From a virus: 64,000 nucleotides of DNA. Shown piece after piece: positions 3 through 63,972 of the stretch; the first letter of the stretch is position 1; the number at the start of each line of letters is the position of its first letter. Both the position numbers and the translations under genes were made by a program. The DNA lies in the IMG/VR virus record IMGVR_UViG_3300034073_002480, positions 32,001 to 96,000 of that record. The stretch is one strand, 5' to 3'. Below the pieces are notes generated by a model. The model was not told the origin of the DNA, searched no databases, and saw only the letters and a program-made list of their open reading frames with translations.

Positions 3-3000
3 CCCTTAAAAGGTGTGGTCGATGCTCTAGGTGCAATATCTGATAAAGCAAAAGGTGTGGAAATCGCCCAAGCTATTGGTATTGACACATCAGGTATCCA
101 AAAGTTAGAGTTGTTTCGTGCTGGTATTTTTGGTAACACCGAAGCTTTACAACAATTTCGCACAGTCTCTCAGACTGCTGGTGTTACATTCACCCTCAAC
201 TTAACAAAGTTGAACACTATTCTTAAGGCATCAAAAGAAGAGTTACGAGATGTTGGGCAAGAGGCGCGTAAACTCTCAAAAGAACTTAACGGTGCGGTAT
301 CATCTGTTGACATTTTAGCTGGTCAATATCAGATTGCTTCTGCTGGTTTTACAAAAGCTATTGATTCTAATGCAATCGCTAAAGCTGCTGGTGTTTTGTC
401 AACAGTTGGCTTCAATGATTTCTTTTCTACGGCTGATCTTGTCACGAAGTCACTAAGAGCTTATGGTTTAGAAGCAAGCAAAGCTGGTGAAGTAGCTGCT
501 AAACTTAATGCTGTTGTTGAAGTTGGTATTACTACTATACCTGAACTTGCTGCTGGATTTGGTGAAACTGCTGTTGTGGCTAATGCATTTGGTATTAGTT
601 TAGATCAACTTGGTGCTGCTATTGCGACTATTACCACACAAGGTTCTTCTACACCTGAAGCTTTGACAGGTATCGAAGCTTTATTGAGAACTTTGGCAAA
701 CCAGTCACCTCAAGCAACAGAAGCTTTAGCTAAACTTACTTTAAATGGTCAGCGCGTAAAATTTGATATTGCCACTGTGCAAGCTAAAGGTTTGGGTGGA
801 GCTTTAACTGATGTCTTTAAAGCTGCTAACGGTAATGTAGAAATTCTGCGGGAAATCATACCAGAGTCTCGTGCTTTACAAGCTGCATTGGCACTAGCAG
901 CACAAGGTGGTTCTTTGTTTGCTAAATCTCTTAATGAAATATCTCAATCGTCACCAGAAAAACTAAGCAACATTTTTGGAGAGGTACAAGAAGATCCATC
1001 GATTAAACTAAAAGCTATTGCAACAAGAGCAGAAGAACTGGTATCATCTTTATCAGGTTCTTTTGATAATCTCACAAACTCTGCATTAGGATCTTTAGCT
1101 AACTTTGTATCTGTTACAGAGAGTATAGCTAATAACCCTGTGATTCAAAAGTTAGGTGAAGGTTTTCTTTTTGTTTCTGACATTATAAGTAAACTTACTG
1201 GGGTTTTTGGTGCATTAGGTGGTGCTGGTTTATCTGTATTAGGCACTCTGATATCTTTGAACCTCACCAATACATTGTTTGGCAAAGGTTTAGCTGGTAT
1301 TGCACAACAAGGTTCGTTGTTGAAAGAATCTATATTTGGTGTTCGTAATTTTGGTTTAGCTGTACAACAACTGGTGGGTATAGATACAACTAAATCTGTT
1401 ATTACAAACCTACAAACACAAATAGAGGATCTTGAAATAAAAGGTAAGGCTCTTCGATTACTGCCGTTAGCAGATCAAGATGCTGCACAAATACAAGAAG
1501 TTGATGACAGAGTTGAAACACTAAAAAATAAGATTGTTGAACTCCAACAACAAGCTAATAAACCCACAGAGTTAGCCTTACAAGGTGTAAAAGAAGCTAT
1601 TGCTGAAGTACAAGCCCTTGACCAAGAGTTAGAAGGATTAGCAGCAAATGATCCCAAACGTGCAGATCTACTCAACAAACAAGCTGATGCTATCGGTCGC
1701 GCTGGTGAAGAAAGACTGAAGCTAGAGCAAGAGATCAACAATCAACAGAAAGCTCAAACTATAACAGCAGCAGAAGCTGAAGCCCGTAGAAGAGAAGGTT
1801 CTGATTTGTTGGCATCTTTGGGTTCTAAAGGTCAAGGTATAGCGGCATTTGATACAGCTACCCAAACCACAACACTTAAAGATATACAACAAGAGCTTGA
1901 AAAAGAAAAAGCAAAAGGTACAGCCGCAGATGCAACACGTGTAGCTAACCTAGCAGCTTCTATAAAACAACTAGATAGCGGTGTTTTAGGCGTTCTAGAC
2001 AAGAATGGGCGGTTGACGGACACTTATAGGCGACAAGAGACAATCGGGCGTACAGCCGCGCTTACAGTGGCAAAAGCGTATGATTTTTTAACAGGACGGT
2101 TGGGACGTACACGTGCAGAGCTACAAGGTATAGATGCTGCACAAAGGGCAGTGCTAAGTTCTCAAAACATAAATAACGCGGGTGCTGCATTTGGTAAGTT
2201 ATTTTCTACGTTACCAAGTTTGACTATAGGTGCTTTTAATGGTTTGTGGAAACTCACAGGAGCTACTGTTCGATTTGGTGCGGATTTATTGTCACAGTTT
2301 CTTAACCCGTTGACATTAGGGCTTGCAGCTATTAGTCTAGCTTCATCAGCTTTCGATGCTTACAACAAAGGTCTGGCATTTCAACAATCAGTCACAGAGA
2401 AGTTAGCTGAAGCACAAAACAGAAGAACAGAGGCTATACGAGACACCACAAAAGCATTAGAAGATCAAGCTCGTGTACAGAAACTAGTTGCAAGTGGTTT
2501 CACAGAAAAACAAGCTACAAAGATAGTTGATGAAGATAACAAACGTGCAGAATTACGTGCTGGTTTGGAGTCTGGTGTATCAGCAGAAAGACAGTCTAGA
2601 ATATCAAAACAGTTAGCGACAAATGACCTTCGTAGTGCTGATGTGTTTTTAAGAGAAGAAACACTAAAAACATCAGCTAATAGGTTGGGGTTGGGTACAG
2701 ACAACGGTGAAGCTGTTGGTAAAACAACTGCACGTAACATCACAACCGCTTTGCTGACAGGTGGTGGTGCTATTGCTGTTGGTACAGCTTATGGTGGGGC
2801 TATTGCATCAGCTTTTGCCGCAGCAGGTACTGTTGTAGCGCCAGGTATCGGTACTATTATTGGTGGTGCTATAGGTGCGATAGCTGGTCTTGCTATAGCT
2901 GAAGCTGTAAGAAAAGCTCAAGGTGAAGCTGAGTCACAAGCTATTATTGCAGAAGCATCGGCACGTAAACGTCTAGAACTTGAGCAGAAATTCAAGCCAA

Positions 3001-6000
3001 ATGAAGCTGCAACAGCCCAAGAACGGACAGCAAGACAAGCTCGTGTTGACCAAGGTGTATCTTTATTTGAAGCACAAGCAAAGGCATTGCAAAGCCAAGC
3101 AGGTGCAGATGCTAACGTAATCGAACAACTTAAAAATAAAACGACTGGGTTTTTAGCTGGTCAAGGTGAAGTTGCAAAACAAATACAAAATGTAATAACT
3201 GCTAATAACAAGTTAATAGAAGATGTTAATACAAGCTTAGAAAAAAATCAAATACCAGAATCTCTGTTCAATGATGCAGATCTCACTAACAAAGTCAACA
3301 GTTTGTTAAAAGGTTCTTCAACTATTGATAACAATGCTTTAATACAAGTTGAAGCTAGACTGGAAGCTGAGAAAAAAGCACTACAAGACCAGAAACAAGC
3401 TGCACAACAGTTTTTAGATAAAGCTACAGAGGATGGTGACAAAGCGGCAATACAAGTAGCAAAATCCCAAGTTGAGAAACTGGTAGCACAAGAATCTGAG
3501 TTTGACAGAATCAGAAGAAACATAGATAAAAAAGTAAAAATAGCTAACACGCAGATCCAAAATGCTTTTGCCTTAGGGCAAGGTGCTGCTGAGTTGGTTA
3601 AAACTGACGAGATTAAATCTATAACAAGTGCTTTACAGGATTTCAACAAAGCTATTTCTTCTACGGCTACTGATGAAGATATAAACAAGCTGCCTAGTTT
3701 AGTACAAAGCTTAGGTTCTAGTTTTGAGCAATTGTCAGCTATCAGTACAGAAGATACTTTAGGCGCACTTGCTGAAATCCAAAAATTATTGGCGAACAAA
3801 GATATAGTTAATGCTGGTAAACAGCCTGTACTTGCATTACAGAATATTGTCACACAAACAACTCGTTCTGTAGCACAAAGACAGGTGGTGTTAGCTGAGA
3901 ATGCTGTACGTAGAATACAAGGGTTAGCAAATGCACAAGATGCATCTACAGCACGTGCAGGTCAAGAAGCACAGACACAAGCAGAGTTAAAAGTTATCGA
4001 GGCAAGAATACAAGCTGCTGAGAAAGAAGTTGCTATTGCCCAAGGTGCTAACCAAAAAGAAGTTGCAGCTAATGAACTAGCACTTGCACAACAAGAAAAG
4101 AAAAACAAACTTGCTGAACAGAAAGCACAGACAGAACTTAATGCAGCTAACCTAGTTTTTGAACGTCAGAAAGCTATATTTGACCTTGAGAAAGCACGGT
4201 TGGATCTCACAAGAACTGACCTTGAGTTAAAAAAACAAGTATTTGAAAAGTTTGGATTAGCCACAGAGTCCACTGACGTTGAGATAGCACGTAATCGTCT
4301 GGCACAGTTGGAGTCTGATGCTGGTAAACAAAGACTTGAGCTTGCTAAAGAACGTGCAGACCTGTTGCGTGTACAACAAGAAGGGTTGGCAAAGCAAAGA
4401 GCAGCACAGGAAACATTAGTGTCCACTGCTGTACAAAAGACAAACATAGAAAGAAAAGAGTTTGACCCCAAACAGTTTGCTGATGCTCGTGCGTCTATAA
4501 CAAAACAAGAACAAGAATCTATAGCTAAAGCCAGACAAAATACAACAAGTGGGATATCACCTGATGCTATAAAAGCTTCAACTGAAGGTGTAAATAGTAA
4601 TTATGCTGATGTAAGAAAAGCCTCACAATTTACACTTGATAAAGTAAAGAAAGCTGAAGAAGCTGCGGAACAAAAAGTAACAGCCATACGTAAACAAGCT
4701 GCTGCTGAACGTCAAAAAATTGATCTTGCGGAGTACAACGCACGATTAGATTTCAGTGATAAACAAGCAAAAGAAGAAAATGCACGTACAAACAAAAAAA
4801 GTTCTACAGCACAGAAATTAGGTGAGGGTAAAATCGTAGTAACTGTACGTGATAACCGTGTACAGCAAGAGCAATCTGAAGAACTGAAAAGACTAGATGA
4901 ACGCAACAAACTAATAGACGAAGGTTTAAAAAAGAAAAAAGCAGAAGCACAGTTACAAATTGACATCGCGGAAGCTTATGATGGTGTGCTAAATCCTCTT
5001 GACCGTCAATCAAAGAAATTAGTGGAGGTCAACACTAATACTACACAAGTATTGGCGGCGTTACAACAGATTAACCCTTTGTATGTATCACAAGAAGCTT
5101 TATTAGGTGGAATACAGTCTAGCGCTGGTTTACAAATACTTAATGCCAAGCGTACTCTTGACGTAGAAAAGCAAAAGCTAGATGTGCAAGAAAAACTGTT
5201 GAAGAAAAACGGTTTGTTAACAGCCGAAGCTAAAAAGCAAATTGATGACCAGAGGCAATTAATACAAACACAGTTCCAACAAGAAGTTGTGAGCATCCAA
5301 TTTGAAGCGCGACAAGCAAGTATTGATGCGTTTGCACGTAAAATAGCTGTTGGTATAGAACAGAAGATCAAAGGTTTGGACATCACACGTAATGCTTTAG
5401 GTGTGTTTGCTGAATCATTTGAAGACTCTGACAGTAAAGAAGCTGTTGATGCTAGAAAACAAGCTGCTGCCATTGGTATAGATATTGCTACAAGACAAGC
5501 TGCTCTTGCAGAACAGACACTAAAAATAGAGCAAGAAAAGACACTTAACCAGCTTAAACAAAATGATTTGCAGTTGCAGTTCCTTGACATCCAACTGAAG
5601 ATCCAAGGCACACAAACCAAAGATAAGGATCTACTAGATGCTATAACAAGCGCACGAGGTTCAATATCTGGTTTGAGGGCAAACATTGGTGCGGAAATAC
5701 AAAATGCACCTGCACGTTTTGCTGAAGAGCAGAAACTACAAAGACAACAATCTGTGTTAGATGTTTCTTCTACGGCTCTGAGATTCCAGTCACAGTTTGG
5801 AAAACCAGATGAACTCAAAAAAGCACAGGAAGAATTTAAACGTGTTAATAATTTGAACCTAAATCGTCCTGTGGGTAATACAGGTGTTAATAATGCTGTG
5901 CAAGTTCTACAGGAGCGTAGTACACAACAACAAGAACAGTTTACACAAGCTTTTGGTTCTGGTATTCAAAGACAACCTGTACAGCAAACACCTATACGTC

Positions 6001-6662: not shown

Positions 6663-7799
6663 ATGGTTGGTTACGATTTAGTTTGGTCAGATGCAGAGAT
6701 TGCTTTGCTGGAGACAACAGTTGGTCTGACTAATGATCAAAGCTTACAAGTTTTAGTGGACAGTGGTTTTACAGATAAAAATATTTATGGTGTAAAACGC
6801 AAACGCGCTAAGATGGGTATTACTAATAATAATAAGTGGTCTGTTGAAGATATTGCTTTACTTGAAGCAAATTATCAGGGTATGACTGATGAAGAGCTTG
6901 CAGCTACATTTTTCCCTAACAGGCATTGGCATGGTGTTGCAGCTAAACGTTTGAAACTAGGCTTGCTCAAAGAAGCTCAATGGACTAATGAAGAAATTGA
7001 AATTCTGAAAGCTGAGTACCACAAAGGTATAGAACACTGTATGACTTTGTTTCCTCAGTACAGTAAAGGGTCGATTAAATGGTTGGGTAAAACACTTAAT
7101 CTATCTGTCAACACAAGAGAACTTAGGCGCAAGTATGACTATAAACGAGATTATTTTACCGAACTAACACTAGAAAACTGCTACGTAGCTGGTTTTATTG
7201 CTGCTGATGGTTGTTTACATGAGAAAAAAGAAACTTTAACTATACAGCTTCACCAGCAAGATAAGATTATCTTGGAAAGATTTAAACAGTTTTTTGGATA
7301 TACAGGTAATATTATTGACAGCACCCCTGAAGAAAAAAGAGCAGATGGTTCTACAAGAACTGCTTTAAAAACAACACTATCTCTACATGGTGTTTTACCT
7401 TGGTTTAGAGATCTTAATAAACACTTCAACATCACCCCTGCAAAAACCAAAACTCTGCAAGCACCTAACCTTTCTTCTATGGATCACAAAATTGCATTTA
7501 TTACAGGTTATATAGATGGTGATGGAACTATTTTTGAATCAGATGGTAAGTTATATTTAGGCGTACTTGGTACAGAATCAGTTGTCAAGTTTATCAAAGA
7601 AGTTTTTGATGAGATTGTGCCTATACCAGAAAACGGTAAAGGTCGTGGTTCACTTACAAATATGGAAGGTAAGTATAGTTTTCCGTTATATAAATACACT
7701 TTATCTGGTGTAAGAGCAATCGCTATATGCCAATACATCAAACAATACGATCTCCCATTTCTAGAACGTAAATGGAATAAGGTTCCTAGCCTAGAATAA
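6663..7799 (+). CDS. Free-standing double-motif LAGLIDADG homing endonuclease with three N-terminal W-x-x-x-E/D-I-x-x-L repeats
   Basis: Motifs YVAGFIAADG and FITGYIDGDG, C-terminal LERKW; repeats WSDAEIALLE, WSVEDIALLE, WTNEEIEILK; ATG at 6663 follows AAGGG. Confidence 0.85.
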   Translation: MVGYDLVWSDAEIALLETTVGLTNDQSLQVLVDSGFTDKNIYGVKRKRAKMGITNNNKWSVEDIALLEANYQGMTDEELAATFFPNRHWHGVAAKRLKLGLLKEAQWTNEEIEILKAEYHKGIEHCMTLFPQYSKGSIKWLGKTLNLSVNTRELRRKYDYKRDYFTELTLENCYVAGFIAADGCLHEKKETLTIQLHQQDKIILERFKQFFGYTGNIIDSTPEEKRADGSTRTALKTTLSLHGVLPWFRDLNKHFNITPAKTKTLQAPNLSSMDHKIAFITGYIDGDGTIFESDGKLYLGVLGTESVVKFIKEVFDEIVPIPENGKGRGSLTNMEGKYSFPLYKYTLSGVRAIAICQYIKQYDLPFLERKWNKVPSLE

Positions 7800-7868: not shown

Positions 7869-7893
7869 AGAGAAAGAATCGTAGAAAAGAAAA

Positions 7894-10275
7894 ATGACAA
7901 CACAGTTTGCAAGTGGTCGAGATAGCGTTTTATCATTAGCTGTATACAATACAGGTAGTGGATCTGTAATGGGCGGCAACCAAGTATATTATTGGTGGTT
8001 ACAGTGTAGGAATCGACTAGGGTACAACAACCCATCGTTACCTTTTTCACTAATAGTCCCTGATAATTGTTCATTAGGTTGCGTTATACCTAATTTATCC
8101 TACCTCGACAGTGAAGATTGGCACGAGTTCCTTGTCTACACAAGCACCACAAATGATTTCACCACATCACGACTGGTCGGTGTCTACAAAGCTCTGCAAA
8201 GCGACCAAATCACACGTACAACTCTTGGCAGTGACACACCTCTCAGCACAGACCCTAAACAACTGGTCTTCACACTCGACAACCAAATCAACTTCTCTTC
8301 TACGGTAGCTACGCCATCTGCTTTACCTGCAACACCTATCAACGGTGCAAGACGATTTGTCACAAGCTTATCGCGTACTTATCGCTATGACTCTACAAGC
8401 ACAGCTACAGCAGATGGTGACACGGTTTTAACAGCCACTACAGGTCGTTGGCTTTACAGTGCTTCCTCGAACCTTATAGAAAACCCCACAAACTTAGCAA
8501 CGGATATCAATGGTTGCAACCAAAACATAAATCTTGCAGACGAAAGCCTTGACCTGATCTATGCTGTTTATGATGTGTCAGGGAATACAGGTACTCCTAT
8601 CAGGTATTACCTCAAGTCTGCTTCTAATACAACGGTAGCCAAAGGTACACGGATATCTTTGTCTGTTCGTGTTGATGGCGTTGACCGTACTGATGATTTT
8701 TCAGGTTTGTTGGATATTACTGTGGAAGGTAAAGTATCTACAAGCAATTACAGTCTCAGCACAACTAACATGCCCTCTGCTGGCTCTGTTGTACCATACG
8801 ACCATTTTGCTCGGAATATACTACTGGAGGATGATCTCCCACCAGACACTTATTTGTTGCTGTCGATTACACCTCGTTTTGCAGCCACTGACCTTGACAC
8901 ATCTTTGACACCATCAGTAGGGCTTTCGATTTACCCTTACTTTGACTCTAATACTTCTTCTTACAATGAAACTAATTTAGCTGTCGGGGATCTCATTTTT
9001 GCTGACTCTAACAGACGTTTGGTAGTGCCTTATGGTTTGGGTGTGTTACGAGCCTTGGAAGGGTCAGGATGTGTCAACCTCTACACGTTTCGCAATGCTG
9101 GTGTAGAGGATCTTACTGTGTCTGTTGAAAATACAGCTAACCAAACAGTGAGAATCGCCCGTACAGGTGTGTGTACTGTTGGTACACAGACAACAACACA
9201 ACCTCGACGTGCTTCTTTTTCTACGGTATCACGTTATACAAAACCATCGGCGTTCAGTACACCATCTACGTTGACGACAGGGCAGACCGTCCAATATACC
9301 ATAACCATAGAAAAAAATGGCTCAAGCAACCCTATTAACCCTCTGTATGCTGACGAAGCTCTTAGGGGTGTTGATAACCAAGCGCGGTTGAACACTGACA
9401 AAGTGCAAGTAGTAATCAATGCTGGTGGTGTATATAAAGGTTTCACTGTCGTGGTTGACCCTACACAAGCAGTCATATCTGGTACGATCTCTGACTGGTC
9501 ATCAGGTACAACGCTGACGCTAGAGACTCTACAAGCACGTGTGGAAGGTTTGTTCCGTTGTGCGTCTACTGCACACACAACATCTGGTACTGGCGGTAGT
9601 ATCCCTGCTGGCGCTGTATCTGTGGCATATTCTTTCTTTTATGATGGCACATCCGTGTCTGACATCTCACACTCAACAGACGATGGTTGCATCACCACAG
9701 AGTTCTTGCAATACAAAGATACTTATAACCGTGCGCTTTATTATGCTGAACCCACACCGACTTTGACAACCCTTAAAGCATTGGTCTACCCTGCGAGAAG
9801 CAATGAACAGCAAAGGAAAGTTATAGCGAATGGTTTGTCATACACTTATAAACAAACAGATACACGCACAGCCGATGGTTTGTATGTTGTAACACCTGAC
9901 GACCTACAAGGACGGTGGGTTCATGAATATTTCCAAGTTGATCAGTCACAGATCTTCACCAAACCACAGTATGTTTTACGCAATACAGTTACTCCTTCTT
10001 CTGTCTTATCTGTCTCTCTCAGCAATGGTAATTTGGATTTTGTCTTAACCAGCAATATGTCTCTCACACTTACAGACGTACAAGACGGTGGATGTTGGGT
10101 TTTGTTCTTTGAGCAAGGTGGTACAGGTGGTTATACGGTGGCTTTTACCAATGTGGACTTCGGTATTATCGGCACACCTTTTCTTTCTACGGCGGTTGGT
10201 GCTTTGGATATTGTGACTGTTATAGCTCGTGGTTCGTCTTTGTATGGTATATTAGGATTAGGTTTTACAGCATAA
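7894..10275 (+). CDS. Tail fibre / tail structural protein
   Basis: 793 aa, Thr/Ser-rich; two tailspike-like elements (YRYDSTSTATADGDTVLTATTGRW, YTYKQTDTRTADGLYVVTPDDLQGRW); C-terminal fibre-type domain (FEQGGTGGYTVAF...LSTAVGALDIVT). Confidence 0.65.
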   Translation: MTTQFASGRDSVLSLAVYNTGSGSVMGGNQVYYWWLQCRNRLGYNNPSLPFSLIVPDNCSLGCVIPNLSYLDSEDWHEFLVYTSTTNDFTTSRLVGVYKALQSDQITRTTLGSDTPLSTDPKQLVFTLDNQINFSSTVATPSALPATPINGARRFVTSLSRTYRYDSTSTATADGDTVLTATTGRWLYSASSNLIENPTNLATDINGCNQNINLADESLDLIYAVYDVSGNTGTPIRYYLKSASNTTVAKGTRISLSVRVDGVDRTDDFSGLLDITVEGKVSTSNYSLSTTNMPSAGSVVPYDHFARNILLEDDLPPDTYLLLSITPRFAATDLDTSLTPSVGLSIYPYFDSNTSSYNETNLAVGDLIFADSNRRLVVPYGLGVLRALEGSGCVNLYTFRNAGVEDLTVSVENTANQTVRIARTGVCTVGTQTTTQPRRASFSTVSRYTKPSAFSTPSTLTTGQTVQYTITIEKNGSSNPINPLYADEALRGVDNQARLNTDKVQVVINAGGVYKGFTVVVDPTQAVISGTISDWSSGTTLTLETLQARVEGLFRCASTAHTTSGTGGSIPAGAVSVAYSFFYDGTSVSDISHSTDDGCITTEFLQYKDTYNRALYYAEPTPTLTTLKALVYPARSNEQQRKVIANGLSYTYKQTDTRTADGLYVVTPDDLQGRWVHEYFQVDQSQIFTKPQYVLRNTVTPSSVLSVSLSNGNLDFVLTSNMSLTLTDVQDGGCWVLFFEQGGTGGYTVAFTNVDFGIIGTPFLSTAVGALDIVTVIARGSSLYGILGLGFTA

Positions 10276-19856: not shown

Positions 19857-19927
19857 TTCCTTCGCTACGGGTCGAACGTAGAATAGAAGATCCAAATTCT
19901 TCTGTGATACCATTTCACTACAAAGGA
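19857..19927 (-). tRNA. tRNA-Gln(TTG), no encoded CCA
   Basis: Acceptor TCCTTTG/CGAAGGA, D stem GTGA/TCAC, anticodon arm GAAGA-ATTTGGA-TCTTC, T arm CTACG-TTCGACC-CGTAG. Confidence 0.88.
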
Positions 19928-50491: not shown

Positions 50492-51126
50492 ATTTTTCTC
50501 TTGTACGTGCTAGAAAACATTCAGCATCAAATAGATCAAAATCAAAAAAGATAGCTCTAAAAACTTGACGAACAGATCTACGATCTATAATCTTTTTATC
50601 AGGGTTTTTCTTTTCATGTTCAAAGATTTTAGATTGAAAATACTCACAAACCTCCTCGTAACGATTAACCTTATGCTGCCAAATATCTGCATCTACTTGG
50701 TTGTCAAAGAAACGATCATCTGATGTTTTATAACCAGTAACCACAGATACTTGCTTGTAAACTGGTCTTGCAATGTTACTCATATACTTTTATATCTCTT
50801 TTTCTAGCTTGTTCTGTTCTACTCTTGGTTTTACATACAGGACAGATTTCATTGTCTGAAACTAAACTTGCATCACAAGCATAGCACCAGTATTTTTTAG
50901 AATACCGAGGTTTTTTCTTTTTCTCACGATTTGTGAGTGGTATTTGTAATTCATCATCCATTCTCTTCTTCAGATATAATCTCAAAATCTTCAACATCGT
51001 AGTCATCAATAAAAGCAACAGAAAAATCAGAAAATATCTGTTTCTTTAAATCTTTTTGGTTCTCGGCTTCATACTCTTTAGTAACTACACCAGTAAATAT
51101 GACACGGACTTTGTATGTTTTCATAG

Positions 51127-52776: not shown

Positions 52777-53659
52777 GATAATCCATCCACAAATACACTA
52801 AATCTTGAATCTCGTACTCACAATCAGCAATATCAAACCCATCATCAGGTGAAGCACCAGACCGTAGAAAAGAAGGATTGATGACTGTACACTCTAGCCC
52901 ATTACGCCAGCAAGCATTAGCAACCATATGTGATTTTTTCCGACCAGCAGTGTCGTTGTCCTCGAAGTATAGCACACCTCGCAAACCGTAGGAAACCAAT
53001 CTCCGAGCTGCATTGTCTAAATACTCTGGTGTAAAACAAAAACCAGCAGGTGTAAGACATTCATATGTCTGGTTGGTTACTGATACACAACATTTTTCAC
53101 CTTCAGCCATCATAATATGGTTGCCTTCTAAGTCAGCTTTAGGCAGTTCACCACTTATTTCTTCGTTGTAGGTAAATAGATGCTGTTCATTAAATAACAA
53201 CCATTGTTGTGAACCCGTACCTGACACATAGTTACTGTTTTTTAGATACTGTGGAGCTACAATCTTCTTACCATCTTTACTGATAAATCTAACTGTCTGG
53301 TGATAAGCAGTATAAACATAGTATTTACGATCAATCTCCTCATCACGCGCACAACGCACGAAATGGCTCTCCAAGGCAAGCAAAACATCACTAGGTATGT
53401 ACAGAGGTTCAGAGTCTAAATAACGTCTAGCGGCGCGTCTAGGTGTACGTAAATTAGTTTTTATATAGGGCGTGTAACGCGCCACAGAATCACGTATCTT
53501 TCTAGTAGAGCAGTCATTAGCGTAGCATTTATAAGCACCTGTAGAAGCATTGATTTTCAGCTTGTGTGTATGACAAACAGGGCAGTCAACCAACAACCAA
53601 CTACCTTTTTCTTCTACGTTCTCTAGTTTTTCTGTGTAGTCAAGGATGTTGAAAGTCAT
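52769..53659 (-). CDS. DNA primase (zinc finger + TOPRIM)
   Basis: CPVC...CYANDC, AEGEK, EDNDTAG, FDIAD. Confidence 0.8.
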   Translation of the reverse strand: MTFNILDYTEKLENVEEKGSWLLVDCPVCHTHKLKINASTGAYKCYANDCSTRKIRDSVARYTPYIKTNLRTPRRAARRYLDSEPLYIPSDVLLALESHFVRCARDEEIDRKYYVYTAYHQTVRFISKDGKKIVAPQYLKNSNYVSGTGSQQWLLFNEQHLFTYNEEISGELPKADLEGNHIMMAEGEKCCVSVTNQTYECLTPAGFCFTPEYLDNAARRLVSYGLRGVLYFEDNDTAGRKKSHMVANACWRNGLECTVINPSFLRSGASPDDGFDIADCEYEIQDLVYLWMDYRG

Positions 53660-55026
53660 ATATAAGACTCAGTTGTACAGTAAGTGTGATCAGGCATTGC
53701 AAACTTTTCTTCTGTCTCCGAAAAACCATATGTTTGTAGTACAGAATATAGTTTATCTGTGTCTTCCTTTGAAGGATTCAACAACATTATGCCTACAAAA
53801 AAGCGTCTAACAGGTTCTGGTGGTTTTTCAGCAGCAACATATTCTATAGATTCAATACCATCAAAAAAGTAGATATCGTCACCAATGTCAACTCTTTGTG
53901 AGCCAATATAAGCTTTAATGGTAAATAACCAGTATGCAGTACCAATCTTCAAGTATATTTGAAGAGTATCTTGATAGTAACCTTGACCACAATCAAAATA
54001 ACCAGTATCGTACAAGCCATACTTCTTGATATCATTTGCAAATTGTTCTGGTGTTGTTACAGTCTCGTTCTCATAAATGTCAATCATACAGCTACACCTT
54101 CATCTAAATCTTCTAAAGCAGCGTTGTAACCTTCATCAAAACCATCCATCCAACCTATTCTGACACCTGCTAGAAAAGCTTGCTCCATAGTAGTGTGAGG
54201 GTTTCCCAACAGATACAAACGATAGCGAAACTCTGGTGTCCATATATCGTTGTACACAGCATGGTAATCGTCCCACTCTGCAAAACCTAACATCTGATAC
54301 ACTTCTTGTTCAGTAGGACAACCTTGTGCATGGTAGGCTAATAATTTATCTTGTAGTTGTTGTATGTTGTATTCTACCATCTTATACTCTTTGTTGGTAA
54401 ATTTTATAACTGCACAGCATCACATTCTAGAAAGTAGTCAAAATAATCAAGAGCTATATTTTCTTTGAAAAAGTGGTGGTGAATGTAATCAACTTGATCT
54501 CCAGTAAGTTCTGTAAGTCCATACAGAAGAGGGTCGATTTCATCTTGCAAAAAGTCAACCGTAGAAAGGAAGGTTAGTGCATCTGGTGGTAGTTGTATTT
54601 CAAACCCCAAAGCCTCTGTTTGCTTGTAATAAGCACGTATATATCTATCAACTTGCATATATTTTCTCCAATAAAGATTCTACTTTTCCTATTAGTAATA
54701 GTAAAGTAATGTTTTGATAAAGTTCTAGATTTTCAGACTGTTCTTCATACAAACGGTTAGCTTTTGATAACCAAGTTTCATAATGCTTTGAATTAGATGT
54801 TTGAAACAAAATATCATAGAAACAGAGTAGATCTTGTTCTGTAACTAATCTATTGACTTGTAATTGTCGGTAAGCATTGTCAATTTCTTCCTGTGTCCAC
54901 TCTTTTTCTATGGTCATATATTTCTATTGTTATATCTGGTTTTTTCTTCTCTTCCTTCTTCTTTTCTGGTTTTGATTGAGCATACCATAAACAAGCTGCC
55001 ACTACCAAACCACCTATGATCTCCAC

Positions 55027-55854
55027 TTATTTCTCATTCAAATACACCTGTTTTGGTAAATAATCAGCAATCAAACCGTCCTCTGTAAGGTGACCTATAC
55101 TGTGTGCTTTAAAAGCTTCATAGTCAAATTCTTCTTTATAAGCATAGCAACGCGCAATCTCACGAAAATTCTGCCAATACCACATAATGCAACGTTTATC
55201 TAAATATACAAGTTTTAGAGTACGTGCTGTAGTAAAGACGATAAGAGACTCACAGACTGCATGTTGTTTATTAGTAGCACGGTTGAATCCAGCAGCATAG
55301 GCAGCAGCTTGCAAATAGTAGCCAATATAGAAATCAAGATCATAAAAGGTCTTGACGTTTTTCCAATCGAGAATTACATTTGTAGAACCTGTACCAATCT
55401 GCACATCTTGTTCGTTAGTAAAACGAGAGCGATCCATGACAGCTACTGCATCCAGAGTACCTCCAAATCCAACTCTTTGGTCACTAGGATCTATCCACAA
55501 GATCTTCTTTTCTTGTAGAGGTAGATCAATCTTACATACAACTTTCTGTATATTGTTATAACGTGTGATTTCTTTCTTGTCTAATTTTGTGAGATCACCA
55601 GTCTCAATAGCTTCGTGAATTTTAGTGCCAGACTTCGCACCTTTTCTTCTATGGATCTCCGCTTCTTCAGCACCCATTTTCTCTACGTTTTTCTGATGCC
55701 AAGCACGGATAGCCTCTATGCCCTTCACGTTGTAGTGATCTTTTAATTTTGTCACAGAGGGGTATCGCATATCTGGTTGGCTGTTATGTATATAGAAACG
55801 GGAGTCAGTTGCAGTGTCATTTATCTGCGTGATCTGAGAATCATCTAGGAACAT
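55027..55854 (-). CDS. PD-(D/E)XK exonuclease
   Basis: YPSVT, GTKIH, GTLD, ILDWK, LQAAAYA. Confidence 0.85.
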   Translation of the reverse strand: MFLDDSQITQINDTATDSRFYIHNSQPDMRYPSVTKLKDHYNVKGIEAIRAWHQKNVEKMGAEEAEIHRRKGAKSGTKIHEAIETGDLTKLDKKEITRYNNIQKVVCKIDLPLQEKKILWIDPSDQRVGFGGTLDAVAVMDRSRFTNEQDVQIGTGSTNVILDWKNVKTFYDLDFYIGYYLQAAAYAAGFNRATNKQHAVCESLIVFTTARTLKLVYLDKRCIMWYWQNFREIARCYAYKEEFDYEAFKAHSIGHLTEDGLIADYLPKQVYLNEK

Positions 55855-55877
55855 AGAAGAAAAGGTGAAGTGTTTAT

Positions 55878-56530: not shown

Positions 56531-57204
56531 TCATATAGGTAACTCCATTAACGGTTGCCAGTAACAATCAGTCAAATCTTGTTCGTCACAGCAGATATGG
56601 TAGTCATTGAAGTCAGCAGCTAAGAGATGCCAACATTGATAAACTACAACCTCTTGTGGCACTCCATCTATAATACCTTCGTATTTGTAACCATACTTGC
56701 GTTCATAATAAGCTGTGCAGACACAACCACGAAGACCATAGAAAAGAAGGAAATGAGTACCATCCCTTGGTGCTGTGTCTAGTGTTTGCCAGTTATGTGT
56801 TGTTGTCATAGTTGTGGTGGTTGTGGTAAAGGTTGCCAATACAAGGGAGCAGGGTTTAGCATAGGTTGGCAACCAAAGTAATGGTCTGGATAAAAAATCC
56901 ACCATGTAGGTGCATCGTATTTTGCGTGTTGCACACCATAAGTAGGATGGTAGACCAACACATACTTTTTGCTCGGTGCTGTAGTTATTGGTTGCCAAGG
57001 ACTGAATAATTCGGGTAGTTTGTGTTGTATAAGTAGTTTACGTCCCACTGTATCAGGATCATCAACCCAAGCTTTATGTATGTTAGTTATATAACTCAAT
57101 ACATTGTAAGAAGTTCTCAACCTTCCTATCAATCTTGTAATACCATGTTCACCAACATCATCATAGTCAACAACTACAACTTCAATTTTATATACGTTTG
57201 TCAT
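56531..57204 (-). other. Two DUF551-like proteins (56531-56809 and 56806-57204)
   Basis: WQTLDTAPRDG...YWQPLMELP and WQPITTAP...YWQPLPQPP. Confidence 0.65.
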
Positions 57205-57272: not shown

Positions 57273-57905
57273 TTAAGACATCGATATCAAGTTACGCACA
57301 ACCTGTTTTTGTTTCCAATGCTTTGCAGTGTCTTGTATATGCCCTTGCCTTACAAACTTACCTATGTTCAAACGAAAGTCCTCATAACCAAAAGAACCAG
57401 CATTGCGTATGACATAACCTTCAGTCACAGAGAAATCCAACTTTCTTTCTATGTCTCGTATCTTCTGGCGATCATACAACCCATAGTATAAAACAGGTAC
57501 AGGGGTAACGCCTAACAACGCAAACCAGTCTAAAGTGTCAGACCATGATAAACATTGATTAGAATCGTTCCATATAGAAAAACCGTAGAAATAAGTGGTG
57601 AGGTTATTATAAAAAATACTGTGTTTAGCATATACGTTTTCACCGCAAAGTCGCCAATTTACAGGGATATCATGTTGGAAGCCAGTGAATAACTGTTTAA
57701 CCCAATCTCTACTTTCATGACTAGCAGAGTCTATACTCCTAGCATGAGAATAGTTAGAGTAAACTGTTGTATTTTCACCATCTAGTTTCTCAGTAACAAC
57801 TACTGTCATACTTTCAAACTGTGTATCTGTTTGTAATGTTTTGTCATCACTAGTTGCACTTTGTGACCAAGGTAGATGATAAGTGCGTGGGTATTTAGTA
57901 TACAT
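57273..57905 (-). CDS. RNA ligase (Rnl2-like nucleotidyltransferase domain)
   Basis: KYPRTYHLPWS, TEKLDGEN, GEN, EGYVIR. Confidence 0.85.
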   Translation of the reverse strand: MYTKYPRTYHLPWSQSATSDDKTLQTDTQFESMTVVVTEKLDGENTTVYSNYSHARSIDSASHESRDWVKQLFTGFQHDIPVNWRLCGENVYAKHSIFYNNLTTYFYGFSIWNDSNQCLSWSDTLDWFALLGVTPVPVLYYGLYDRQKIRDIERKLDFSVTEGYVIRNAGSFGYEDFRLNIGKFVRQGHIQDTAKHWKQKQVVRNLISMS

Positions 57906-57906: not shown

Positions 57907-60900
57907 TTATTTACCTAATACACGTAATCTATGTAAAACCACAGGGAATTTAGAATCCCACTCAGCAGATCCGTAGTATAAATCTTTGTATAAGTTGTAA
58001 TAAGCTTCAACTTGCTTCAGTATCTCTTGTGGATCAGTATTATTATGTTTAAGCACAGAAATAAGTTCCAAAAAACCAGCAGTACGTTCTTTATATATAG
58101 ATGATTCTAAGGTAAGTTTAAAATGTAACCCAAACAAAAAACCTACAATTACACGATGAGCAAAAGGTCGTGTACCCCATGTACACCAACCGATTTTGTT
58201 GAGTAAACCCCAAAAGTAATCACACATACTATAAGTCCCATATACGTTCTAAACATTTCAATTGATAACAAGGGTACATAGGAGGATAAGGATCTAAATG
58301 ACCATCAGAATCAAGAGTACATTCAAAATCCTCAACATAGAAAAGAACATAAGGCAGTAGATGCCTGTACTCACTACATAACAATGATTGCATGGTGGAT
58401 AATACTAATTCTTGTGCTGTGTGGAACACAAAAATAAAACCAGTATCTTTGCACTCTACAAGTTTTTCTAACCAACTACGGCATTCTGCTTCTATGTCAC
58501 AATCGCGATATAGTTGTACAGATTTATCTTGCTCTGTATATAGAATTTCTAGTTTAGCCATGTATAATCCACACTAGTAAAGATAAAACTACAAATTTTT
58601 CAAACATATCGGCTCTGGTGCAGGTGGCATATCATCAATAGGTGGTAGAGAAGGAATAGTATCATCGTCATCGCCCATATTATTATAACCTCACAGTTTT
58701 TGTTTTTAAATAGTCGTATATATCAAAACCATCTGGTGATACCCATTGAACCCAGTATGCTTCGCCATCATCTTCAGTCGGGTATACCCAATTATTTAAT
58801 GCAGCATATACAGCAAGTTCTTCTTGTGGTCTTGCTTTGTATAAATAACCTCTACATATTTCTCTTGCCAGTAGAAAGTCTCTATGTTCCAACAAAGCAT
58901 GAAAGACACGTATAGCTTCTTGTTCATTTCCAAGATCATAAATAAAAGGTTGTGGTGTCCAATTATCATACCAAAATACAATGCGGTATTTACCCATAGT
59001 CATATTCTGTAGCTCCTAATTCCTTGGTTATCTGTAAAAAGTATCTATGTGTGAAGCACAACCAACAATCAAAATCATTTGTAGCTCTTGGTGTCAGCAA
59101 CTCATGTATTGAAGACCATAGAAGAGAAAGCGTTTGCTCTGTAATAGGTAGTATAGCTCTCCACCAACCATCATCTATACTGTACAATGAAAGACATTGC
59201 CAAGGTTCTTTATGACGACCACCACCCAAATGATGTCGTGTCAGCGCTAGTTCATTGTATTGTCTGTTATATAAATGCAAAGCATCAGATGGTGTAACTT
59301 TTACCACACAAGCATATGTTTCACTGTACACATCACCAGAATTACCTATTCTTTTTCTATGGTATGTTTGTCCTAACAAAGGATCTAATTCTTCAGGAGA
59401 CATTGTGTATAAGTTGTACATATTCTCTTCAATGAGTTGTAGGTTACTCATACAACTACCTCTTTCTGCCAATAACAAACACCAATTACACCTATATATG
59501 ATTCCTGTTGTTTAGAGTCTACGCCTAGAGTGTCATCAAACAAACGGCATCTCTTATGCCCACCATCGTTGTAGAAATAAGGGCAGATATGCATCTTGTA
59601 ATCCCAACACACGGACTCAGGTGGTACTTGCGTTAGTTTTATAATCATACTCAGGCTCCATCAAGTTTATCAACCATCTTACACGAAATGAACACTGCCA
59701 ACGATCAGAAATATAGGACAGATCACCTTTGATAGATTCTTCGTCAGTCATCTCTAACAAACCCAAACCATCACCATGATCTACAGGTGGAGAAGCTGTG
59801 TAACCATAAGTCTCGAAACCCGACCTATAATCAGGATCTCTAGCCAACAATACAAGCTCGTAATGTCGCTTGAGCCATAGAAGAAAAGGTTGGAGCTTCT
59901 GTTTGATTTGTTGTAGAGACAGTGGTTCCAGTACAGCATTATAACCAAAAGAATCCATCAACACACAGAAGTCTTTGTGTTTCTTACAACTATATCTAGG
60001 TCTGCGGTTACGTCTTTTGTAGCGTATAGACAACTGGTTGTATTCGTCACTTCTTTTTCTTCTACGGTTCTTGCACTTACGTTTGTAAAAGTAAGTAAAC
60101 CAAGGATCGTTACAGGACATATTACCGACCTCTGTATAATTTATTTATAATAGGTACACACGATAAGAAGTAGTGGTTAGCTCTTACAACAGAATTATCT
60201 ACATCGTATAATTCTTTATGTAGATCCAACAACTGCTCATGGTTTAAACCAGCTTCTATATCTAAATGTCTAATAAAGTCTCTGTCATAAGATCTGATAG
60301 CATCACCAAAATACATCTCTAGCAACACTGCATCAGCTAGGCTTTGAAAATACATAGCTATACCTTTTTCTCTGCACATTGTTGTTTCATAGGAACCTCG
60401 GATCGGTGCATCTTTCGTAAGATCCTTGAAGTAAACAGAATATTGTGTAAGACGAGTAACTAGATCCTTACCTTTGTTACTGACAGGATCATCTTGATTT
60501 ACTATAGCTATATTGTTTAAGGCAGGTGATTTCAGATTGTATTTGTCTGTATTTCTTTCTATGTATAGTTTTACAAGAACAGAAGATAGTATACCGACAA
60601 GAAAATAATCATCTGTGATCTCATGGATCTCCAAACGTCCTTTTCTCCAACCATAGTGTTTCTTTAGCTCCAGTATGAACCCTTTTGGTTTGTTACCTTT
60701 TATATACTGCTCTAGAGTTATTACAGGTGTGGTAAAATCCATACCTTGCTTAAGTAACCAATCATACATCATAATTAATTCACAGGTACTAATATTAAAT
60801 GTGTATCTTCGTCTTCTATGGTTTCACCAGACCATGTGTTATAAGGTTCATAACCAGCTAAGCCTATACATGCTAGAGGGCTGTAAGCATTACCTTCAGC

Positions 60901-61985
60901 ATCTTTTTGTATAATGATTTCTTTGTCGAGATCAGCTTCAGTTGTTTCTGCTAATAAATCACGTAGTGTCATATTACACCTCTATATCTGGTTCATGGTT
61001 AGCAACCCATTGTGCGTACCACTCTGGGTTTGTTTTTAATTCTTGATGTATAATCTGCCAACACTGGTATATACGATCTCTTACGTCTGTACCATTGCTA
61101 TCGGTGTCAAAGTCTTCGTAATCAAAACAAGCGCCCCAAATAGCGTTCTGTATATCTTTCGGCGGTACATTGCCATACTTCATGGGTTGATCCATAACAC
61201 TTGTGAGATGTTTAGCTTGATTTCTTGACATGTTTATATAACCAATCTATATATTTAAAAGATTCCCCTCCGAAATCAACTAGTCCTTGATGACTAGAGT
61301 GTAGGGCTTCGTGGGCAGGTGCATATAGCGCAGGGTGTCGTTGCAAAAAAGATGACAAATCTTCTTCATATCTCTGACAAAAAGGTATCTCGTAGTTGTA
61401 GGTATAATGCCAATAACCACCAAGAAATCGGTCAGATACACGAGCTACATAGATGTAACCGTTATCTAAAACCCATACAGTTATACGAGGTTTACTTAAC
61501 ATTTTTTCTATGGCTCTAATATATATGACCAATGTGTAGGTTTATTGAACCGTTCTATTTTGCAAGTAACCCAACCTGTTAAATCCCACTTTTCAGGATC
61601 ATTAGAATCAAACCATCTACTCACTTCTACAACAGGTATTGTGTGGTCTAAAAAAGATGCTAATAATATCCATTCACCATCTTTAGGTGCAGTTTCAATA
61701 GGTTGCCAATTCATGATTTACCTCAAAATAAACTAATATATTATTGTCAATATCATAATCAAGGCTTACAAAATTCTGCGTTATTACAATAATTTGTGTA
61801 ATAGCATGAAGTAATTTATCCTGATTACCAAGACTTATACGACAATAGTTTGGTTCTTCGTACTCGCACGAAAAATCATTTTTGAGAAAACATTTTTTCA
61901 AAGTAGGTAGTAGTGTTTTCTCTAAATACTCTTTTTCTTCTGCTGACTCGAATACAAGTACAATACTTTGATAGTTTAACGGCAT
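57907..61985 (-). other. Dense run of small coupled hypothetical ORFs, including a third DUF551-like ORF (61508-61714)
   Basis: About 12 abutting ORFs of 65-216 aa; 61508-61714 begins WQPIETAPKDG. Confidence 0.6.
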
Positions 61986-62046
61986 AATAACACCATAGAA
62001 AAAACAAAAGACGCTGCCGAAACAACATCTTTCTTTTATTTATAAA

Positions 62047-63196: not shown

Positions 63197-63972
63197 TCAA
63201 GCGTAAGCATCCATTTCTGGGTAAATAGGTTCATCATCTGGTTGTACAGCAATATCTGGTACATAGAAATCAGTACCTAATAACCAATCTAGAATTGGTA
63301 CATTACCAGCTTGAGGTTCAAATTTAGTCATAAACAAATTAATATCTATTTCTGACACTTGATAATCAACCAACCATTCTTGGTAAGAGTAGTAAGATAC
63401 TACCCCAAAAGAAAGTTCAGCATCATCAGTAGGTAAATAATAGAAATAGTTATCTACAGATACACACAAAGATGCCCAATCTTCTTTATTATATAATCGC
63501 CAACCTCTAGATGTAGGCAACTCAGGATTATTGCTAGGATTAGAGTTGTAAATAACAAGGAGCATATTAAGTACCACACAACAACAAGTAGTAATTAGAA
63601 GGGTACTACCAATCCTTGTGATTACACGGTCAAACCAGCTTCTTTAGCTTTAGCACCCAAAGAAACACCCAGAGCTTTAAGGTCATCAGTCGCCATAGAA
63701 AGAAAAATAGTAGGATCTCTCTCTTCTATGGCTTTGATTTCGGTATCAGTTAACAGACCAGCACCTAATAGCGCACCTTCGATCTCACGAATCCTAGCAG
63801 CATACTTTTTCTTAGTCTCTGTTTCAGGGTCTACACCATCAGACAGATATTGTGCCAACACAATACCAGTTTGAGGTGTAATCACAAACAAAGGTTCAGT
63901 GAACAAACCACCTTCTGATTTATCGCAGACGCAGTTATGTGCGCGATCTTGGATATCAAATACAAAATCCAT
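63197..63972 (-). other. Two hypothetical ORFs (63197-63577, 63622-63972)
   Basis: ORF track; acidic proteins with no recognisable motif. Confidence 0.5.

Follow-up and report, generated by a model that had tools for sequence, protein, structure and literature searches.

An evenly spaced, strand-specific 16-base word runs through the genes of a putative freshwater cyanophage and possibly marks priming sites

The window and its genes

The stretch of DNA analysed here (the window) comprises bases 32001-96000, 64,000 nucleotides (nt) in all, of the single-contig IMG/VR virus record IMGVR_UViG_3300034073_002480 (138,722 bp; genome G000), whose two ends repeat each other, and its genes are crossed on both strands by many copies of an asymmetric 16-base word, which is the subject of this study. 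The products of the genome include a Mu-type portal, NrdA, NrdB, a family-A DNA polymerase, an AAA_25 helicase, ThyX (Thy1 family, window 36175-37026), a dUTPase, a dNMP kinase, RuvC and two N6/N4 DNA methyltransferases (window 27298-28050 and 24620-25363), and a DNA ligase and RNA-ligase-family proteins are also encoded in G000. A very long open reading frame (ORF) of 2047 amino acids (aa) inside the window, 2163 aa in G000, matches the tape-measure gene region of phage PA-SR01. The gene calls are greedy ORFs rather than the output of a gene finder (207 ORFs, 91% coding).

Among GenBank phages, a portal or primase recognisably related to that of G000 was found only in the Pseudanabaena phages Pam2 and PA-SR01 (~31% and 27% identity), and near-identical DNA is present in contigs of lake, wetland, aquatic and subsurface metagenome runs (24 runs, 10 studies). 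Because of these Pseudanabaena-phage relatives and of the near-identical contigs from freshwater-type metagenomes, we read G000 as an uncultured freshwater cyanophage. A megablast search of 24 kb against GenBank phages returned two matches of ~65 bp and nothing more; the DNA polymerase used as bait recovered no IMG/VR relative and, in GenBank, only 38-47% identical polymerases of unrelated phages; and a portal profile search of species genomes gave no match. Five more long contigs (105-137 kb) carry portals that are 69-86% identical to the window portal.

A selected word on both strands

Alignment of the copies gives a 16-base word, A-[C/A]-C-R-T-A-G-A-A-R-A-R-A-A-R-G, in which T-A-G-A-A is invariant and outside which the aligned copies hold no information. 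Its core, HCRTAGAA, occurs 94 times in the window compared with 13.9 +/- 3.8 times in dinucleotide shuffles (the largest count was 22, and none of the 100 shuffles reached 94). Genome-wide there are 199 copies, with 9-17 in every 10-kb bin when the strands are pooled. In an unbiased scan of the 8-mers of the genome, fragments of the word rank at the top; the z value of the top 8-mer was not used alone, since unrelated loci and T7 reach similar z values in short stretches (13.8 for pieces of the T7 promoter). Sites were defined by a 19-column weight matrix that was refined on the genome and applied with a cut-off of at least 11 bits. The matrix score is bimodal, and the 200 genome sites that reach the cut-off (105 on the + strand and 95 on the - strand) stand well apart from the background. 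The window holds 94 of them (46 + and 48 -), 84 with the exact core and 10 with one-base variants of it (for example, CTTAGAA and CGTACAA), and 10 core matches in the window score below 11 bits.

An earlier sequence-only reading of the window had listed 65 positions of this motif. The core is present at all 65, and 64 of them are matrix sites, the reverse copy near 60552 falling below the cut-off. Its tally of ~65 copies, with ~15 near matches besides, was an undercount, given 94 core matches and 94 matrix sites in the window, and its GC content of about 36% was too low, as the window measures 37.8%.

Could the word be a by-product of the encoded proteins? In a codon control, synonymous codons were shuffled 200 times inside the ORFs, so that proteins and codon usage were kept. 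The core then occurred 78.6 +/- 5.5 times (maximum 92) compared with the 199 observed copies, and CRTAGAARRRAA occurred 27.2 +/- 2.4 times (maximum 35) compared with 110. Protein sequence and codon usage therefore do not explain the excess. Approximately 40% of the copies survive the codon shuffles because the proteins themselves are shaped to carry the word; evidently, part of the protein sequence has been bent to accommodate it. Neither dinucleotide nor codon-preserving shuffles, both of which had been proposed as checks on the motif, thus reproduce its frequency. In a comparison of window positions 40001-60000 with the contigs of four runs, none of the 40 listed differences (of 812) falls inside a matrix site by our reading, but with an expectation of only ~1 this carries no weight for or against selection.

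The 200 sites are distributed without regard to the direction of genes, with 83 in sense orientation, 84 in antisense orientation and 33 intergenic or at gene edges. Sense sites are translated as T/N-V/I-E-x-x in 68 cases and in the next frame in 15, and none lies in the frame in which TAG is a stop codon; antisense sites are divided among the frames as 47/21/16. The sequence-only reading had described the motif as lacking orientation to transcription, as read in several frames on both strands and as lying inside the NrdA, NrdB, DNA polymerase, portal and ThyX genes, and all of this is borne out, with both strands used equally. Its view that selection acts at the DNA level is likewise upheld by the spread over frames and strands, by the excess over codon shuffles and by the retention of orthologous sites between drifting flanks, as presented below. 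The stoperators of cluster A mycobacteriophages likewise repeat an asymmetric word of 13-17 bp many times across a phage genome. They are oriented with transcription, and the window word differs from them in its equal numbers of sense and antisense sites.

To assess conservation, we used G001, a 131,991-bp IMG/VR contig whose portal is 70% identical to that of G000 and which shares 102 reciprocal best hits with it at a median amino-acid identity of 61%. The same word is present in G001 at 122 sites (62 + and 60 -). The comparison set comprised 70.3 kb of aligned orthologous coding sequence with 95 G000 sites and 71 G001 sites. Of the 95 G000 sites, 46 are found in the same column and on the same strand in G001 (chance ~0.05 by our own arithmetic), and the identity of the two genomes falls to the background value of 0.64 directly outside the word. 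Thus, the conservation in relatives that the sequence-only reading had suggested as a check is present, with flanks that change at the background rate. Within shared sites, the R positions switch between A and G even where the amino acid changes. Positions 2-13 of shared sites show 54 transitions and 10 transversions, compared with 14 and 33 in the flanks, a comparison that is partly circular because one matrix chose both sets of sites. Gaps in the alignment coincide with only 3 of the 95 sites, the differences at the others being substitutions; therefore, the sites arise and vanish by substitution, and an origin by insertion, as of a mini-element, was rejected. Three short metagenome contigs, whose portals are 71-83% identical, bear the word as well.

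Another question is whether the word is a signal of the host. In each of 301 cyanobacterial genomes (1.6-8.5 Mb), CRTAGAARRRAA has 0-42 copies, a number that in most cases does not exceed that of a reversed-pattern control; its density is at most ~10 per Mb in cyanobacteria versus ~790 per Mb in the phage (110 in 0.139 Mb). A host signal such as HIP1 was rejected for the word on the basis of this lack of excess in the 301 genomes, a sample outside which the host itself may lie. The cyanobacterial HIP1 word, GCGATCGC, is found 90 times (8 expected) in a related phage contig, the G003 phage contig introduced below, and not once in G000; the related phages take opposite courses on this host word.

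The DNA uptake sequences (DUS) of Neisseria and the uptake signal sequences (USS) of Haemophilus resemble the window word in their frequency of approximately one per kb, in having both orientations, in running through genes in several frames and in having dialects, and even spacing has been reported for USS. However, DUS and USS mark bacterial chromosomes for an uptake machinery, whereas the carrier of the window word is a lytic phage, namely a 138.7-kb virus record that encodes portal, tail and replication proteins, and the 301 cyanobacteria have no excess of it.

Spacing along the strands

The mean gap between neighbouring sites on the same strand is 1332 and 1458 bp on the two strands of G000, so that the per-strand spacing of about 2 kb given in the sequence-only reading does not hold for this genome; the corresponding gaps are 2.1 kb in G001 (up to 2.14 kb) and ~1.7 kb in G002, a more distant relative described in the next section. 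The coefficients of variation (CV) of these gaps on the + and - strands are 0.57/0.64 in G000, 0.69/0.65 in G001 and 0.48/0.67 in G002, compared with 0.96-0.99 +/- 0.10-0.14 for random placement, and same-strand gaps shorter than 300 bp are scarce (6 versus 21 expected and 7 versus 17). Strand labels alternate along the genome more often than after permutation (126 versus 99 +/- 7), and when the labels are permuted, evenness is lost, the mean CV being 0.60 as observed and 0.85 +/- 0.06 after permutation. A control in which the sites of one strand are slid along the other gives the same alternation and the same combined CV (0.78 observed versus 0.74 +/- 0.03). Because sliding reproduces both values, the strands are mutually independent, and coordination between them, which the alternation might have suggested, was rejected. 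No region of the genome stands out by a clustering of sites or near-sites such as might be found at an origin. The new observation is thus that each strand holds its own even series of words and that the two series ignore each other. Evenness per strand together with independence of the strands points to a reader that uses a single strand or tracks one way, and not to a coat of duplex DNA that ignores orientation.

These data bear directly on several possible explanations. The first is that the words are duplex DNA binding sites through which a phage protein would organise, condense or silence the chromosome. In favour of it, the sites are many, dispersed, conserved in position and high in information, and near-copies of the word adjoin A-tracts at the start of the assembly. 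A duplex binder, however, predicts evenness of the two strands combined, and the combined CV does not fall below that of the shift control, nor are the sites clustered. In addition, it would be unusual for a specific duplex binder to read a purine-only run of six positions, and no conserved DNA-binding candidate is apparent: a Pyr_excise-like protein has no tblastn match in the G003 phage contig, and the product of window 46874-47692 is unsuitable for the reason given below. We therefore consider duplex binding highly doubtful.

The second explanation is sequence-specific DNA modification of the words by a phage methyltransferase or a base-replacing enzyme. The two N6/N4 methyltransferase genes of the window and the single G flanked by A in the invariant core would agree with it. 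Modification, however, gives no reason for an enrichment or an even spacing of its targets, and 16 bases far exceed the length of a methyltransferase site. Moreover, G000 has none of several restriction palindromes (GGCC, 80 expected; CCGG, 77.5 expected; CTGCAG, 32 expected), and avoidance of restriction palindromes is the strategy of unmodified DNA; being nearly total here, it speaks against protective bulk modification. Hypermodification genes were not seen among the ORFs that were scanned for families in six overlapping sets of 10, which cover part of the proteome. This explanation appears very improbable indeed.

A third explanation, in better agreement with the spacing, is that the words are programmed single-strand nick sites of a candidate phage nickase, as in T5, phiKMV and tf/Rembedalsseter. 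Nicking affects a single strand and so would agree with spacing that is independent on each strand, and a DNA ligase and two RNA-ligase-family proteins are among the products of the phage. In the Rembedalsseter work (PMC11780129), the nick words of phages are, like the window word, short, asymmetric, located inside genes, conserved among relatives and of obscure function, and in Rembedalsseter 13 nicks lie at WACTRTGAC, a word that is also overrepresented in 60 relatives. The window word nevertheless differs from these nick words in several respects. It is ~6 times denser (200 sites per 139 kb versus ~9-13 per 45 kb, as given in PMC11780129), it has a purine tract, and it is spread evenly over both strands (105 + and 95 -) with every 10-kb bin filled rather than at few, uneven sites, whereas the nicks of Rembedalsseter, according to the same source, are concentrated on one side and mostly on the coding strand. 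Furthermore, double nicking at opposite-strand neighbours ~20-40 bp apart (51159-/51196+ and 63692+/63717-) would leave only a short duplex; the genome has nine adjacent pairs of sites within 40 bp when strands are pooled, which is approximately the chance number. A nickase conserved across the lineages was not identified, and the two GIY-YIG endonuclease genes of the phage look like homing endonucleases. Nicking as the function of the words thus seems unlikely, although nick words are the described phenomenon that comes nearest to them.

Among the functions that the sequence-only reading had listed, one-strand processes (priming, nicking and tracking) are consequently favoured, while a duplex coat and bulk modification are disfavoured.

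Dialects of the word in distant relatives

Searches in more distant relatives revealed other words of a common design: one pyrimidine, followed by 7-11 purines starting with AG, AA or GA, often with a few specific bases ahead. G002, a 71-kb IMG/VR fragment with a portal ~33% identical to that of the window, has the word Y-A-A-C-G-A-A-A-G-R-A-A-A; its core ACGAAAG occurs 83 times (39 + and 44 -), and the 8-mer AACGAAAG occurs 52 times compared with 3 times for the reversed control. The word of PA-SR01 (portal ~31% identical) is K-R-C-A-G-A-A-A-R-R-R-A, with ~156 sites (80 + and 76 -), and the same word is present in the 40.9 kb examined of Pam2, whose primase is ~27% identical. In six IMG/VR loci with ~26% identical primases (L153-L158), the word is R-T-A-A-G-A-A-A, and GTAAGAAA has 12-27 copies per 10.6-20.8 kb on both strands. 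L159 (primase 28% identical) carries A-G-T-C-C-G-A-A-A-T-A-A, with the 8-mer GTCCGAAA present 22 times versus 0.49 expected. Finally, the G003 phage contig (C155, with loci L142-L148), which is 126.5 kb long, was binned with a Chroococcidiopsis metagenome-assembled genome and has a 35% identical portal, shows a modest excess of TAGAAAA (101 versus 30.9 expected; 62 + and 39 -). The invariant cores of the six dialects, with a slash between pyrimidine and purines, are T/AG in G000, T/AG in the G003 phage contig, C/AG in PA-SR01 and Pam2, T/AA in L153-L158, and C/GA in both G002 and L159.

Two further loci were rejected as dialects. In L160 (an IMG/VR contig, 10.5 kb examined), the repeated element is a hairpin-bearing unit of ~30 bases with an inverted repeat, present in 8 copies, 7 of them on one strand, and looks like a terminator or regulatory repeat; in L162, TAAAGAA is found 39 times on the + strand versus 3 times on the - strand. 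An exact-word search of IMG/VR yielded 115 stretches with one match each; tblastn linked them to the phage by no more than scattered single genes, and they were rejected as chance matches.

Primase, helicase and other candidate readers

Which proteins accompany the word across these lineages? By tblastn, 9 of the 207 ORFs match G002, which is an incomplete genome, 32 match PA-SR01, and 23 match the G003 phage contig. Only four match all three, namely the primase, the helicase, the portal and one tail protein; by the same search, no DNA polymerase is detectably common to the three. The primase, a 296-aa protein with a zinc-binding domain and a TOPRIM domain of the T7-gp4/DnaG type (52769..53659, - strand), is a candidate reader of the word, and the 549-aa replicative helicase encoded directly downstream of it (51127..52776, - strand; AAA_25 and primase/helicase PHROGs) is its candidate partner. 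The primase is conserved in G001, G002, PA-SR01, Pam2 and the G003 phage contig.

The primase sequence contains a four-Cys zinc ribbon and the TOPRIM motifs EGEK and DNDxxG. It has a weak match to PHROG 47 and 909 homologues in a representative library, and a profile search found the T7 primase 1NUI with an E value of 0.004, while a single-sequence search of the PDB gave chance matches only. An AlphaFold2 (AF2) model was built from an 81-sequence alignment (predicted local distance difference test score, pLDDT, 89.9), and a single-sequence fold (pLDDT 33.6) was discarded. The best Foldseek matches of the model were 1NUI (E value 8.9e-6), Twinkle, T7 gp4 and DnaG cores, with template modelling (TM) scores of only 0.31-0.37 owing to a different placement of the two domains. 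Judged by sequence and predicted structure, the 296-aa protein is a primase of the T7-gp4/DnaG kind that is split from its helicase. An attempt to relate residues of the zinc domain to the dialects was abandoned, since the lineages are too few and the comparison is confounded by phylogeny.

The sequence-only reading had proposed several proteins as readers, including the primase and the product of window 46874-47692 (- strand). Conservation across the lineages favours the former. The latter is a 272-aa protein without a Pfam or PHROG family that is 74% identical to a hypothetical protein of PA-SR01 (61013-61834), and it would be a poor specificity reader because the word of PA-SR01 is a different one. 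The proteins shared with PA-SR01 are mostly 20-40% identical, with ~51-52% for NrdA/NrdB and 74% for the 46874-47692 product, a degree of similarity that points to recent exchange or unusually strong constraint.

Possible functions of the word

Taken together, the above features lead us to a preferred but tentative reading, which is less likely than not to be correct: the words would be selected start sites of the lagging strand, used by the phage's own T7-gp4/DnaG-type primase with its helicase. The primase as reader, the start point of the primer and its length are the parts that we infer. The template would be the pyrimidine-rich complement of the word, and the initiation trinucleotide would be CTA, opposite the invariant T-A-G, its 3' nucleotide being recognised and left uncopied ('cryptic'). 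The primer would begin with pppA-G and extend for ~11 nt through the purine tract, giving a purine-rich RNA on a pyrimidine template, and the upstream A-M-C-R might serve as a flanking contact for the primase. If the primase needs so long a word, one would be kept per ~1.3-2 kb on each strand, and because it is needed at intervals on each strand, the word would be forced through coding sequence in any frame that tolerates it. Both strands would carry words since forks can cross any region in either direction.

Several observations are consistent with priming. Among them are the independent, even series on each strand, the place of the primase and helicase among the four proteins common to three diverged lineages, the scarcity of the word in cyanobacterial genomes and, with the circularity noted above, the excess of transitions at shared sites. 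The strand-wise mean gaps of 1.33-2.14 kb in three genomes are within the size range of Okazaki fragments, which for T7 is given in PMC12839067 as ~1-6 kb. The implied template triplets are CTA (G000 and the G003 phage contig), CTG (PA-SR01/Pam2) and TTA (L153-L158), and, in PMC2978363, DnaG primases are described as starting on CTA, TTA or CTG, with pppAG at the start of most E. coli primers. For the primase family, the relevant parts of PMC6163395 and PMC2910064 describe recognition of a template triplet, copying from its middle base and a 3' base that remains uncopied. The information in the word ends 11 nt past the proposed start, and a length of ~10 nt is stated for DnaG primers in a section of PMC6163395. 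Parts of PMC6136900 and PMC12839067 also report an effect of flanks beyond the triplet on T7 primase, and T7 primers use only two NTPs (PMC2910064).

Like the known priming sites of DnaG and T7 gp4, the word would be read on one strand, and its core can be fitted, with the weakness noted below, to a triplet whose 3' base is left uncopied and to a primer that starts with purines; the window encodes such a primase. The differences are equally clear: the known sites are CTG, CTA and TTA for DnaG and GTC, extended to (G/T)2GTC, for T7, that is, 3-5 bases that occur by chance and show no visible selection, whereas the window word has ~16 bases, ~200 even, orthologous copies and an 11-nt purine tract, with priming as its inferred role.

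These differences are among the points that weigh against lagging-strand priming. To our knowledge, 3-5 specified bases are enough for every primase of the T7-gp4/DnaG family. Triplets arise by chance at intervals of a few dozen bases, which leaves the selection of 16 bases unexplained, and T7 gp4, the nearest solved fold, makes primers of 4 nt, not 11 nt. The equal frequency of the word on both strands in every 10-kb bin means that forks must cross regions both ways, which is an extra assumption. The A-M-C-R block holds much of the information of the word and is explained by analogy alone. A separate dialect for each primase clade is also what plain phylogeny leads one to expect of any gene. 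In the G003 phage contig, the primase is orthologous, yet the excess of the 7-mer is only modest; no word was found in 20.6 kb of L161, which has a more distant fused primase-helicase; and the spacing in PA-SR01 (CV 0.90 and 0.83, P 0.20 and 0.07) is not significantly even. The match of the triplets is itself weak because a purine tract is by definition bounded by a pyrimidine, and we estimate its chance probability at ~0.15 (three of four junctions matching three of eight possible ones). Finally, TCG, the triplet implied by the C/GA dialects of G002 and L159, is not named as a primase start in the primase papers cited above.

Another possibility, which we rate as rather unlikely, is that the words form a phage-private 'self' code written along each strand and read by a strand-tracking machine that tells phage DNA from host DNA. 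The reader could be a primase-helicase that primes only at the code, with purine-only, RNase-H-resistant primers, or a helicase-nuclease, and each lineage would evolve its dialect together with its reader, as with uptake sequences in bacteria.

A related and distinctly improbable explanation is a phage-private Chi-like signal by which a strand-tracking helicase-nuclease or translocase would spare or process phage DNA. Chi, the signal of RecBCD/AddAB, is, like the window word, a strand-specific, directional and dispersed mark of self. Chi sites are overrepresented in the chromosome of the host and have a strand bias connected with replication, whereas the window word is ~16 nt long, without strand bias and without enrichment in the cyanobacterial genomes searched. 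A Chi-like role would account for a signal that is directional and strand-specific, occurs in both orientations and is evenly spaced on each of two independent strands, and lineage-specific dialects are expected of self-marks. The density of the word in the phage exceeds that in every one of the 301 cyanobacterial genomes by a factor of ~80, and its information of ~18 bits corresponds, by our own arithmetic, to tens of chance sites in a 6-Mb host. On the other hand, the word is not a host Chi, given its lack of excess in the cyanobacterial genomes searched, and no tracking nuclease was identified, only the primase and helicase being conserved with the word.

If the words are priming sites, the template preference of a primase would be visibly written into a genome, of which we know no earlier case; ~200 selected, strand-wise even sites would then constrain the amino acids of essential proteins and diverge into dialects, and the places and the manner of lagging-strand initiation in a phage could be read from sequence only. 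Should the words instead be nick sites or a mark of self, their density and evenness still exceed those of described cases, and a self code, if true, would be a genome-wide layer of information on top of viral coding sequence. Two cultured relatives, PA-SR01 and Pam2, bear their own version of the word. A term search of the main texts of the papers on these two phages (PMC10286775 and PMC9837993) found no mention of it, and a literature search for such phage-genome words or nick motifs turned up only the T7 primase and Rembedalsseter nick papers.

Word sites in the window

The sites are given here with strand and weight-matrix score in bits. In the portal gene, one lies at 17009..17024 (+, 17.6; also present in L116 and L130-L132) and one, common to G001, at 17376..17391 (-, 22.7). 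The ThyX gene (Thy1 family) carries a site at 36837..36852 (-, 17.5) and the NrdB gene one at 42814..42829 (-, 22.4), while the NrdA gene has sites at 43476..43491 (+, 15.6), 44054..44069 (+, 21.1), 44153..44168 (-, 18.7), 45190..45205 (+, 13.3, weak), 45227..45242 (-, 21.2) and 45500..45515 (-, 14.1). Within the DNA polymerase gene, they are located at 47961..47976 (+, 24.4), 48888..48903 (-, 14.1), 49330..49345 (-, 18.1) and 49464..49479 (+, 21.3). Both sites of the helicase gene, 51159..51174 (-, 24.0) and 51196..51211 (+, 21.7), are common to G001, as is the second of the two primase gene sites, 52861..52876 (+, 24.0) and 53605..53620 (-, 23.3).

Elsewhere in the window, sites common to G001 are found on the + strand at 11913..11928 (21.4), 14417..14432 (23.6), 20773..20788 (21.2), 24040..24055 (19.7), 24998..25013 (16.5), 26610..26625 (21.7), 33277..33292 (16.6), 34930..34945 (18.6) and 39877..39892 (18.9), together with an orthologous site at 9304..9319 (19.4), and on the - strand at 12337..12352 (24.1), 20074..20089 (20.3), 24381..24396 (18.1), 25282..25297 (21.6) and 30326..30341 (21.8). 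Three - strand sites have a variant core and are common to G001 (12966..12981, 15.9; 22212..22227, 17.7) or identical in it (50494..50509, 12.7). Variant cores are also present at 3519..3534 (+, 14.4, a one-base variant), 15494..15509 (-, 15.0), 18434..18449 (+, 16.4), 22548..22563 (+, 14.8) and 40320..40335 (-, 14.4) and, at weak sites, at 49885..49900 (-, 12.0) and 55674..55689 (-, 12.7). Other weak sites are 2197..2212 (-, 12.9), 5160..5175 (+, 12.4), 37785..37800 (-, 12.3) and 58483..58498 (-, 11.2), the last being the weakest kept. One site, 7878..7893 (+, 15.9), directly precedes the start codon of an ORF from 7894, and 63692..63707 (+, 17.7) and 63717..63732 (-, 18.9) form a convergent pair.

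The remaining + strand sites are 1783..1798 (23.6), 4443..4458 (19.7), 14117..14132 (16.1), 15572..15587 (16.9), 19875..19890 (15.4), 21692..21707 (20.6), 25195..25210 (24.2), 27806..27821 (21.8), 28022..28037 (21.4), 29285..29300 (15.2), 30995..31010 (19.5), 36131..36146 (21.8), 38908..38923 (21.8), 41190..41205 (17.6), 54558..54573 (23.1), 55850..55865 (23.6), 56735..56750 (23.1), 57582..57597 (14.3), 58334..58349 (16.1), 59115..59130 (24.1), 59874..59889 (22.9) and 61992..62007 (15.4). Those on the - strand are 418..433 (19.0), 3652..3667 (18.0), 5761..5776 (16.0), 7468..7483 (15.3), 8291..8306 (22.7), 9212..9227 (19.8), 10178..10193 (20.4), 13138..13153 (19.1), 25856..25871 (19.2), 28597..28612 (13.7), 29584..29599 (17.3), 31567..31582 (18.7), 34276..34291 (20.5), 37088..37103 (19.9), 41241..41256 (18.9), 54899..54914 (21.1), 55640..55655 (20.4), 57440..57455 (17.8), 59348..59363 (18.4), 60053..60068 (22.7), 60807..60822 (16.2) and 61499..61514 (16.0).

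Other features of the genome

At the start of G000, bases 1-240, which are repeated at the end of the assembly, contain A-tract units with near-copies of the word that miss the G (C-R-T-A-A-A-A-A / C-A-T-A-T-A-A), followed by one full copy of the word and one reverse copy. This may be an end or origin region.

The avoidance of restriction-type palindromes is nearly total in G000, which also has no GGTACC (26 expected), GGATCC (21 expected), CCATGG or CGATCG, while GATC is common (517). The avoidance list of G001 is similar, and that of G002 is different (GATC 37 versus 230 expected; TTTAAA 0 versus 23). Such avoidance suggests heavy, lineage-specific restriction pressure from the hosts.

Genes for GIY-YIG endonucleases are located at window 18603-19736 (+) and at G000 104082-104879 (+), the second also having HNH/AP2-like PHROG matches. 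Neither has a reciprocal best hit in G001, and both are probably mobile homing endonucleases. For the sealing and repair of nucleic acids, the phage has a sizeable set of proteins: an RlaP-type nucleotidyltransferase, an ATP-dependent DNA ligase and two members of the RNA-ligase family, of which one is of the PHA02142 type; the genes of this ligase/nucleotidyltransferase set lie at window 23554-24636 and 57273-57905 and at G000 112991-114370 and 99861-100955.

Differences among strains are visible in the metagenome contigs. Contigs of runs X5 and X14 skip 428 bp at window 53655-54084, which matches a 143-aa ORF at 53656-54087 that seems to be present in some strains and absent in others. In the contigs of three runs, window 50805-51122 is replaced by 42 other letters.

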